This document shows, one piece after another, positions 9,730 through 13,138 of a stretch of DNA of 13,511 nucleotides. The notes below the pieces were generated by a model. The model did no database searches, was not told the DNA's origin, and saw nothing but the letters and a program-made list of their open reading frames with translations. The stretch is from the IMG/VR virus record IMGVR_UViG_2606217106_000016. One strand, given 5' to 3'. Origin of the DNA: a virus. Lineage: Duplodnaviria > Heunggongvirae > Uroviricota > Caudoviricetes. Position 1 is the stretch's first letter. Every line of letters begins with the position of its first letter. The translations under genes were made by a program, and so were the position numbers.

Positions 9730-10589
<860 letters not shown>

Positions 10590-11207: not shown

Positions 11208-11235
11208 AAAAAAAACGGGACCACGGCCAGTCCCG
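11208..11235 (-). terminator. Rho-independent terminator acting on the minus strand (stem CGGGAC/GTCCCG, 8-nt loop, T8 on the minus strand); possibly bidirectional
   Basis: Plus strand aaaaaaaa-cgggac-cacggcca-gtcccg; on the minus strand the hairpin is followed directly by 8 T. On the plus strand a T6 run lies 10 nt downstream (weaker). Confidence 0.6.
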
Positions 11236-11349
11236 GAACCATGAGTTTTTTAGGGTATTAGTTTGTTATCATAATTAGCGTGCTAAGTATGCCGTATCAG
11301 GCTGATTAGTGAAGTGATGTTGTTCGCATTTTTGCACGGCGGAGAATAT

Positions 11350-11736
11350 TCAGATTTTGGGAAATCCATATTTTTCCCGTGCGCGGTTACATGCTTCATT
11401 CGCGATGCCATTTTCGCCGGACATTGCGAATTCCCTGCATGTGGACGGACGGTTTTTGTAAACAGAGCAATATGCGTTTTCACCGGGGGGGCCGGCCAGA
11501 GCGACACATCGGGGATTTTTCTGATTGGTGCCGCGCATACAGCGATGAAAAGGAGATATTTGCTCAGTGAGACTGACCGGGACGTTTCCGCCAGCATCAT
11601 CGGCTTCAGCCCAGTAAAAAGAGACGCGGAAAAATGCACAACAGGCACCACACGTCATGCATGGATTCGGATTGTTCATTTTTATACTATTTGTTGTTTT
11701 TTCAGCGATCAGATAAAAGGGCGCTGAAAAAAACAT
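11350..11736 (-). CDS. YkgJ/UPF0153-family putative zinc- or iron-chelating protein (CxxCGxCC motif), 110-128 aa
   Basis: Track ORF 11350..11736 (minus): ...[25 protein letters not shown]...[17 protein letters not shown].... The CxxCGACC signature is typical of the PF03692-type cysteine-cluster domain. Alternative start at the second Met (11679). Followed by the minus-strand terminator at 11208-11235. Confidence 0.5.
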
Positions 11737-11739
11737 TCT

Positions 11740-12019
11740 CCAAAATTAGATTATAACTATTTGATTTTATGGATAGAGGCATGCTTTTTACGCAAAAGTA
11801 AAAAGCATGCCAAATTTGCCATTAACTCTTTGAATATTCAGCACTAATCATCTATTTCGGTTGCCTTCTTATTCATAAGGCGGGACACTTTCAGGATTTT
11901 GAATTTATTCAATTTTTTCCTTTCTCCAAAATCTCTCCAAAACTTTTCCCCAAAACCAGGGCACGCATTTTACAACACTTTTTTCCTGAAATGGTGACGG
12001 ATATTCCATATGATGTTTG
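11740..12019. promoter_or_regulatory. AT-rich putative attachment-site (attL/attP-arm-like) and promoter region downstream of the int 3' end
   Basis: Lambda-type int genes are transcribed toward att, with the core within ~100-250 bp of the int stop. The region is AT-rich and contains direct repeats TCTCCAAAA (about 11923-11942) and the palindrome above. The core cannot be pinned without the partner site. Confidence 0.35.
11778..11811. repeat. Perfect 13-bp inverted repeat GGCATGCTTTTTA / TAAAAAGCATGCC separated by 8 bp (CGCAAAAG)
   Basis: Direct inspection; lies in the AT-rich region between the YkgJ-like gene start and the integrase 3' end. Confidence 0.8.
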
Positions 12020-13138
12020 TTAAATAACCAACTTAACCCATTCCTGACCTCGGGTATCGTTATAGCGATCGGTGGTAGCCTGGACTTTATGTCCCAGTAA
12101 TGTTTTTGTATCGACACCCTGTGCGCGGTACAACCGTTCTGACAGGGAGCGTTGTTCATGAAATGTTGGCGGTGTTTTTCCTGCTGGTGGAATTATTCCA
12201 GCCAGATCTCGCGCTTTGGCGAAGTAATCGCTCAGGTTGTCTTTACTCATCGGTTTTGGTTGTTTCTGGTGCCTACTATGGATTAGATATGGACTTAATA
12301 TTCTGTCTCGGCACCCATCAATAACTTCTTTTAACGTTATCCCAATGGCATCACAGCGTAGTGTAAGCGGTAACGCCAGGCGCATTCCGGTTTTTCCCTG
12401 GGTGATATGCAAGTGTTCGTTCCACACATCTGAAAAACGCATGTGGCAAATGTCATCACGGCGCTGACCAGTAACAATCGCAAGAAGCATTGCGTTACGG
12501 ATAAAGTGTTTTTCAGGCGTTGCGTTGTAAATTTTTTGCCAGTCTTCCAGGGTGAGTCTGGCTCTGGTTACTTTAGGGATCGGTTTACGGGTAGCCTCCG
12601 GAGGATTCCATCCAGGAGGAACTTCTCCTGCATGCTGTGCTTCTTTATAAATATCAACCCATAATCCACGATTTACTCTCGCTGTGCTGACCATGTCTTT
12701 ATCCAGCCAATCATCCAGTATTAATGCAAAGTCTCTTACTTCCAGTTCTTTCAATGGATGGTTTCCCAGACGGGAAACCAGGTATGCAGCCATTCGGGCT
12801 TTTTCTTTGTGAGTTGTAGCTGCAATATCTCCATTTTTCAGTCGCGTGTCCTGTATTTTCAGATATCGATCAACCCATGCCTTTAATCTGATACCCCGAC
12901 GTTTTGTTGCTGACGGACTTTCATCAATTTTGCGCATGAAATATTCAGCTTCTGCTGCAGCTATTCGCTGATTGGCTGTGGAAGCGATTTTTTCTGCCTT
13001 ACCTTTGTCTGTTCCGAGTCCGTGAAATTTTCCAGTCACAGGATTTTTATACTGGTAGTAAACTCTGCCAGTTCTGCGATCAAACTTTTCGTAAAGACCG
13101 GCTACGTCAGTGCTGTTTTTTCGTGGCCTCGGTGACAT
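12020..13138 (-). CDS. int: Lambda-family tyrosine integrase (372 aa)
   Basis: N-terminus MSPRPRKNSTDVAGLYEKFDRRTGRVYYQYKNPVTGKFHGLG parallels lambda Int (MGRRRSHERRDLPPNLYIRNNGYYCYRDPRTGKEFGLG). C-terminal catalytic region PPTFHEQRSLSERLY...LLGHKVQATTDRYNDTRGQEW matches lambda PPTFHELRSLSARLY...LLGHKSDTMASQYRDDRGREW (H-x-x-R, catalytic Tyr). Confidence 0.9.
   Translation of the reverse strand: MSPRPRKNSTDVAGLYEKFDRRTGRVYYQYKNPVTGKFHGLGTDKGKAEKIASTANQRIAAAEAEYFMRKIDESPSATKRRGIRLKAWVDRYLKIQDTRLKNGDIAATTHKEKARMAAYLVSRLGNHPLKELEVRDFALILDDWLDKDMVSTARVNRGLWVDIYKEAQHAGEVPPGWNPPEATRKPIPKVTRARLTLEDWQKIYNATPEKHFIRNAMLLAIVTGQRRDDICHMRFSDVWNEHLHITQGKTGMRLALPLTLRCDAIGITLKEVIDGCRDRILSPYLIHSRHQKQPKPMSKDNLSDYFAKARDLAGIIPPAGKTPPTFHEQRSLSERLYRAQGVDTKTLLGHKVQATTDRYNDTRGQEWVKLVI

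Follow-up and report, generated by a model that had tools for sequence, protein, structure and literature searches.

Tandem lysogens, among them lambda dilysogens and Sp10 integrated beside Rac via the Rac attR, leave a central P-O-P'-type junction in which no bacterial DNA separates the two elements (PMC2669165, PMC8112680). Sp6, the prophage found at potB/potC in Escherichia coli O157 Sakai, circularizes, and in K-12 a marked derivative inserts again at this locus (PMC2669165). The potC gene is among the listed insertion sites of Shiga toxin (Stx) phages. Here we describe an attachment (att) site at positions 11680-12019 of a 13,511-nucleotide stretch from a Caudoviricetes virus (IMG/VR record IMGVR_UViG_2606217106_000016; the whole stretch is referred to as the window), which we read, with a probability of about 0.88, as a lambda-type att site in the P-O-P' form, lying between tandem prophages that occupy the potB 3' end, immediately ahead of potC. 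It is a feature of a known kind, an ordinary lambda-type site in hybrid form, at a known locus and in the Sp6-type prophage family. The window resembles tandem lysogens in having phage DNA on both sides of the core and no bacterial DNA between its P and P' arms, but its two arms are of different sequence types and its left-hand element is a heavily deleted remnant.

The core was located from a megablast search against complete E. coli genomes and phage records, which returned matches with sharp, recurring boundaries: attR-type matches stop exactly at 11875, and attL-type matches begin exactly at 11864. At loci where int adjoins potC (L003, L008 and L009) the window match runs from 11864 rightward, and at loci where the phage end adjoins potB (L004, L005 and L006) it runs up to 11875; one prophage (L008) provides both att ends. 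Comparison of attL, attR and the empty attB in E. coli genomes thus yields a 12-bp common core, CCTTCTTATTCA. In a five-way alignment this is the sole stretch common to attL on the potC side, attR on the potB side and the junctions, and it is identical in attL, attR, attB and the POP' junctions, with divergence beginning on each side of it. The B-O-B' sequence rebuilt from the potC-side and potB-side flanks equals the intact potB-potC junction in 3800 of 5426 complete E. coli genomes; the junction is interrupted in about 1626 of them (~30%), and 1636 genomes match the junction of the window. The core occupies the last codons of potB (...LLNKKVELE*), with the potC ATG 11 nt past it. These results bear out the initial annotation, which had proposed from the sequence alone an att site downstream of int with its core somewhere within 11850-12019, and had asked for an uninterrupted site in prophage-free strains. 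They also name the integration locus, potB/potC, a recognized Stx-phage insertion site. Integration separates potAB from potCD and leaves potC behind the P' arm, downstream of int. The Stx1a phage record LC744186 was considered as the source of a matched attL and set aside, as its first 3 kb carry no core or int homologue, so that its left end belongs to another site.

The two sides of the core come from different prophages. The left arm of the window is the attR arm of L004, L005 and L006, and similarity among these type A loci, Sp6 included, starts near 11680; the right arm is the attL arm of L003, L008 and L009, and is near-identical in these loci, in L033 and in other POP' junctions. With the P arm of the upstream remnant to the left of the core and the P' arm that belongs to the int/xis prophage to its right, the window holds a P-O-P' junction. 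The same POP' junction occurs in 13 genomes, the best match among them carrying three att places; three places, as seen in H63, the closest full-length relative of the junction, are what the series B-O-P' / P-O-P' / P-O-B' would give. The earlier suggestions that two phage-derived elements meet within the window and that the int/xis prophage continues rightward out of it both hold; the att reading itself stands in refined form, as a hybrid P-O-P' site instead of a simple attL or attR. The boundary of the two prophage-derived elements is thereby fixed to a 12-bp core, which is mainly of value for annotation.

The recombination proteins encoded beside the site are of the lambda kind. Int matches the Arm-DNA-bind_1 family over residues 1-64 (PF09003, E 3.7e-21) as well as the Phage_integrase domain, and it aligns with lambda Int (1z1b; E 2.5e-54) through the TGQR, KTG, FHExRS, LLGHK and Y motifs, so that at sequence level a tyrosine recombinase with the catalytic R-K-H-R-H-Y set adjoins the site. 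The gene is intact and is transcribed toward an AT-rich region, as first described (34% G+C over 11650-12030 vs 51% for the window). Int shares 98.7% identity with the integrase on the potC side of the prophage that O157:H7 F8092B has at potB/potC, and the six int-bearing potB/potC loci compared all encode a 100% identical Xis. Type A/A2 arms (L009; L005 + L033) and a type B arm (L008) alike are accompanied by this Xis (100%) and by this Int (98-99%).

Sp6 is the closest described prophage: its annotated right end falls on the core, and it shares with the window the core, the P-arm family and the chromosomal site. The matching int and xis were read in the equivalent O157:H7 prophage of F8092B (L005 + L033); this prophage has the same P' arm as the window and an identical Xis, with the Int identity given above. 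Sp6 differs from the window in being a single prophage with an ordinary attL and attR, and its P arm is an A2 variant with one mismatch in the palindrome described below and with espK, not the ykgJ-like gene, as neighbor. In F8092B the attL core beside potC (L033) reads CCTTTTTATTCA, with a C-to-T change at core position 5, unlike the attR core of the same prophage, which is CCTTCTTATTCA. The altered base is not part of the predicted 7-bp overlap but does fall within the ribosome-binding region of potC.

The lambda attP sequence was retrieved, and sites in lambda and in the window were measured from the overlap center, which in the window rests on the predicted TTATTCA (Table 1). The 9+3+9 arrangement of the lambda core served as the model for placing the overlap and the core-type sites. 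The repeat TCTCCAAAA has three exact copies in the window, at 11737, 11923 and 11934, where 0.11 are expected (three or more copies in 0 of 200 shuffles), and with the one-mismatch copy TCCCCAAAA all four stand on the plus strand inside 220 bp. The initial annotation had noted the pair 2 bp apart, which is exact (11923-11931 and 11934-11942); it had overlooked the third exact copy at 11737-11745 and the one-mismatch copy at 11947-11955. The copies lie on both arms and are distinct in sequence from the core sites, and by analogy with lambda they are most readily taken for arm-type Int sites, of which the P arm has one and the P' arm three. The P'-arm trio follows the lambda P'1-3 sites (+53, +63 and +74) in position and orientation, and the P arm carries a perfect match to the integration host factor (IHF) consensus WATCAANNNNTTR at 11754-11766 and a one-mismatch match at 11823-11835.

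Table 1. Coordinates of the att site and associated features in the window; signed offsets are distances from the overlap center
Feature	Position	Strand	Remarks
ykgJ-like gene, 109 aa, CxxCxxCC domain	11350-11679	minus	Pfam PF03692, E 8e-12; last gene of the left-hand remnant, just outside the P arm
P arm, 'type A', from left-hand prophage	11680-11863	+	same arm beside core + potB (attR) in L004, L005, L006 and Sakai Sp6
Inverted repeat TTTTTTCAGCG-N14-CGCTGAAAAAA	11697-11732		abuts P1; 11-nt perfect arms; lambda tI/sib position
P1 equivalent, TCTCCAAAA	11737-11745	+	-135..-127; lambda P1 -143..-134
H1 equivalent, IHF-like, AATCAAATAGTTA	11754-11766	minus	perfect match to WATCAANNNNTTR; -118..-106 vs lambda H1 -126..-114, same strand
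Candidate P2 equivalent, TATCCATAA	11767-11775	minus	inverted, 2 mismatches; right after H1; -105 vs lambda P2 -112, inverted; low confidence
Perfect palindrome, 34 bp	11778-11811		arms GGCATGCTTTTTAC 11778-11791 and GTAAAAAGCATGCC 11798-11811, 6-nt loop; -94..-61
H2 equivalent, IHF-like, ATTCAAAGAGTTA	11823-11835	minus	1 mismatch; -49..-37 vs lambda H2 -48..-36, same strand
Substitute potB 3' end on P arm	11844-11863	minus	attR reading ...LNKK-ATEIDD-stop; TAG 11846-11844
Imperfect inverted core-type 9-mers, TGCCTTCTT and CATAAGGCG	11862-11870, 11874-11882		3-bp spacer; fit to lambda 9+3+9 by inspection
Common core, CCTTCTTATTCA	11864-11875	+	predicted strand exchange site; invariant in attL, attR, attB and POP'
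Predicted 7-bp overlap, TTATTCA	11869-11875		analogy with 9+3+9 lambda core
P' arm of right-hand int/xis prophage	11876-12019	+	near-identical wherever int adjoins potC
Possible H', IHF-like, ATTCAATTTTTTC	11907-11919	+	degenerate, 2 mismatches, by inspection; +35..+47 vs lambda H' +32..+44; weak
P'1, P'2, P'3 arm-type sites	11923-11955	+	TCTCCAAAA 11923, TCTCCAAAA 11934, TCCCCAAAA 11947; +51, +62, +75
Integrase, heterobivalent lambda-type tyrosine recombinase, 372 aa	12020-13138	minus	Pfam and alignment to lambda Int
Excisionase, 89 aa	13107-13376	minus	PF07825, 23.2 bits vs cut-off 23; overlaps int start

Taken together, the window and lambda attP agree in the order and strand of the arm-type and IHF-like sites and in near-identical distances between them, the core of the window may by inspection follow the 9+3+9 layout, and they share a homologous arm-binding Int, a xis that overlaps int, and an int transcribed toward the site. 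They differ in the arm-type sequence (C/AAGTCACTAT in lambda vs TCTCCAAAA in the window), in the core and in the bacterial target, which is gal-bio for lambda and the potB 3' end here. The P arm of the window is shifted by about 8 bp relative to that of lambda, the distance from the end of int to the overlap center is 148 bp as opposed to 80 bp, the Xis/Fis slot holds a perfect palindrome where lambda has direct Xis repeats, and, unlike in lambda attP, the P and P' arms belong to two different prophages. As judged from the sequence, the architecture is that of lambda with different recognition sequences. The resulting map of arm-type, IHF-like and core sites for this integrase offers a means of marking the ends of related prophages.

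If the site works as in lambda, to which it is homologous, the arm-type sites TCTCCAAAA, a single one on the P arm and a tandem set of three on the P' arm, would be bound by the N-terminal domain of Int, which may also bind the weak inverted site of the P arm, and its core-binding and catalytic domains would bind the imperfect inverted sites around the predicted TTATTCA overlap and carry out ordered strand exchanges there. IHF would bend the arms at two or three of the consensus-like sites, and Xis would set the direction of the reaction. With an attR further to the right, the junction would provide the left-hand att site when the int/xis prophage excises. This right-hand prophage may still be excisable, as the hybrid P-O-P' junction lies beside an intact int and xis.

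To compare P arms, we searched IMG/VR for the pattern TTCTCCAAAA, a gap of 108-128 nt and then the core, which retrieved 21 stretches; together with the loci already fetched these gave 17 unique P arms. All related arms have precisely 118 bp between TTCTCCAAAA and the core, although 108-128 was permitted. One further hit (L022), with the same anchors and a 118-bp gap, was discarded as a chance match, since its whole interval is an open frame by hand translation and its flanks are unrelated. The related arms fall into four types. The P1 element TTCTCCAAAA, which in the IMG/VR set served as the search anchor, is identical in every type otherwise compared, including the divergent type B; the TTGATT element of H1 is retained in types A, B and D and is TTGAGT in type C; and the H2 element TTGAATAT is likewise retained in A, B and D and replaced by TTGATTTA in C. 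By eye, arms of types C and D also appear to carry one-mismatch inverted arm-type copies near the P2 position. Set against the other types, type A shows 68-82% identity over the P1-H1 part and 60-71% from H2 to the core, whereas the central 52-bp slot reaches only 25-42%.

Some of the conservation next to the core has a separate source, because in attR the P arm would supply a substitute C-terminus for PotB. The native protein ends in ...LLNKKVELE*, and by hand translation the substitute ends read ATEIDD* in the window and VSELDD*, VSEIDN* and VSDIDN* in types B, C and D, respectively; in the hybrid junction the substitute end is out of use. Copies of the type A2 arm, with the core complete or truncated, also stand beside non-potB DNA in other prophages (L007, L021, L023, L029 and L035-L039), where they may be leftovers of recombination or could offer secondary attB sites within prophages.

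The central slot of the type A arm is occupied by the palindrome, and no other perfect hairpin-type inverted repeat in the window is as long: its arms measure 14 nt, compared with longest stems of 7-12 in 120 shuffled or random 13.5-kb sequences. The initial annotation had recognized a perfect inverted repeat at 11778-11811 but had divided it into 13-bp arms and an 8-nt spacer, where we find 14-nt arms and a 6-nt loop; it had also judged the repeat not to be a canonical terminator, in agreement with our results, and had considered a recombinase- or IHF-related site, which we do not favor. Neither strand has a T-run after the palindrome and the terminator scan makes no call, so the reading as an intrinsic terminator was rejected, and a known RNA family was rejected as well, RsaJ being the only Rfam match, with 16 bits where the gathering score is 100. 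The palindrome occurs in 17 IMG/VR stretches, each of them this same P arm, and a dispersed repeat or a site used elsewhere was rejected on that account. The IHF-like matches flank the palindrome, which lies between them in the least conserved segment of the P arm. Types A and A2 carry the GGCATGC palindrome, type C has no counterpart at its position, and types B and D have, by eye, only short dyads (6-bp and 4-bp arms, respectively) at about the same place.

This segment is what we take to be the counterpart of the lambda X1/X1.5/X2 and F region, where Xis and Fis bind between P2 and H2. No Xis-binding site was identified in the P arm, the expected slot showing no sequence relationship from one arm type to another even where Xis is identical; a 10-mer search for a shared Xis-type motif in the central slots of types A-D gave only A-tract-like matches with 2-3 mismatches, and matches to the Fis consensus in these slots were unconvincing by eye. 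Because arms that share Int and Xis keep the exact 118-bp spacing but have unrelated central segments, the data suggest that the slot is a length-constrained spacer able to host passenger elements, and because the slot is unrelated in sequence among arms with the same Int and Xis, the palindrome is probably no specific site for a recombination protein. We favor a passenger element within this spacer, one with a functional tie to the neighboring ykgJ-like gene. The idea of a spacer that hosts a palindrome is a modest one and not a surprise.

Several points limit the reading of the junction. The window ends inside both elements and so lacks potB, potC and the outer att sites, and the chromosomal location is accordingly carried over from relatives; the left-hand element is a deleted remnant whose own int lies outside the window; every site assignment rests on consensus matches combined with positional analogy; and the P2-like and H' sites are weak, with two mismatches each. 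The int/xis phage could instead have entered a relic P arm plus core carried inside another prophage elsewhere. Such relics lie beside non-potB DNA in prophages near ssrA (L007, L021, L023 and L029), integration into a prophage-carried attB has been documented in Shiga toxin-producing E. coli (PMC8112680), and the window itself shows neither potB nor potC. We nevertheless consider this origin very improbable, given the three att places in H63 and the identical type A arm with the ykgJ-like gene that abuts potB in L006; on either reading the site would be built, and would work, in the same way. As for the palindrome, our argument that it is a passenger is weakened by the L009 prophage, a type A-arm carrier that is degraded and could be recombinant. 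The palindrome might instead be an architectural or directionality element, a site for Xis, Fis or another dimeric accessory factor that type A arms would need for excision. Its span, -94..-61, coincides with the stretch that the X1/X1.5/X2 and F sites take up in lambda, the dyads of types B and D are centered within about 2 bp of its position by eye, and phased A-tracts are common to the arm types. However, Xis of the lambda family binds direct repeats, not a 34-bp dyad, and the slot is only 25-42% identical across types even though Xis is 100% identical with A/A2 and B arms. Furthermore, the Sp6 arm, in which the palindrome is mismatched, sits in an excising prophage and must work, because Sp6 circularizes and re-integrates (PMC2669165). 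We regard such a role as unlikely, though not far-fetched.

A role as RNA, in which the palindrome would be a terminator or a retroregulator like lambda sib/tI, acting on int transcripts in attP or the hybrid junction or on potAB transcripts in attR, is distinctly unlikely in our judgment. Its appeal is that the hairpin is very stable on either strand (-24 to -26 kcal/mol, z about -6.5) and that, like the lambda tI/sib hairpin, it stands downstream of int with the core in between; in the attR arrangement, about 30 nt separate it from the preceding substitute potB stop, and it is upstream of the co-oriented ykgJ-like or espK genes. The lambda hairpin, in contrast, lies outside P1 and is followed by a T-run, whereas the palindrome lies between H1 and H2 and is followed by none, the type B slot offers just a 6-bp stem, and the variants carry uncompensated mismatches in the arms; the terminator-scan and Rfam results given above count against it too. 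The reading that we favor instead ties the palindrome to the neighboring gene. Wherever the ykgJ-like gene is full length (10 of 10 loci) the palindrome arms are perfect, and wherever it is absent or truncated to 37 aa (15 of 15 loci) they show 1-2 uncompensated mismatches, so the palindrome may be functionally tied to the gene; it could act as a stable hairpin at which transcripts coming from potAB or int are stopped or processed, or as an operator-like site upstream of the ykgJ-like gene. Against this stand the absence of a sigma-70 promoter call in our scan upstream of the gene, the missing U-tract, and the fact that the correlation covers about three lineages only, which makes it a lead and not a test. 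A fuller version, in which the palindrome is a functional cassette in the Xis/Fis slot (a regulator site or RNA hairpin for the ykgJ-like gene, or for potAB/int read-through) that also modulates assembly of the excision complex, is a long shot; if true, it would link passenger-gene expression or the physiological state of the host to prophage excision. A passenger element in a length-constrained spacer, tied to the ykgJ-like gene, remains our preferred reading of the palindrome.

The left-hand element contains Q, methylase and lysis genes to about 9780, followed by a tail-fibre fragment, a DUF4376 protein and the ykgJ-like gene, so that tail-fibre-assembly and ykgJ-like genes lie to the left of the P arm. 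Similarity to other lambdoid phages ends near 9780, and because it stops there, the sequence suggests a large internal deletion in this prophage. Within the tail-fibre fragment, a 45-bp tandem repeat (9963-10318; 7.9 copies, 90% identity) encodes a collagen-like Gly-X-Y run.

The ykgJ-like gene is 81% identical at the nucleotide level to K-12 ykgJ in the coding region only, with homology ending at the ATG (11679), and a YkgJ family protein is annotated in L001 and L006. A terminator-like hairpin with T8 lies just downstream of the gene on the minus strand (11216-11244), and because of it the gene looks like a self-contained inserted unit, or moron, at the phage end. We also considered an origin of the P arm in the chromosomal ykgJ-ecpE region (the 'attB-in-PP_2' of PMC8112680), which was rejected on the grounds that K-12 homology stops at the ykgJ ATG; the K-12 region upstream of ykgJ does contain an inverted repeat, but one unrelated to the palindrome. 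A minus-strand TATAAT at 11755-11750 was likewise rejected as the promoter of the ykgJ-like gene, having neither an acceptable -35 element nor a scan call.

Two smaller repeats were noted in the arms. The inverted repeat at 11697-11732 (-13.3 kcal/mol, z -3.7) is not terminator-like, as on both strands its T-run is 5' and its A-run 3', and it is lost in the Sp6-type arm. On the P' arm, GGCACGCATTTTAC at 11960-11973 matches a palindrome half-site at 12 of 14 positions; a third half-site is probably a chance resemblance, as most other P' arms read GCCACGC... at this place and match at 11 of 14.

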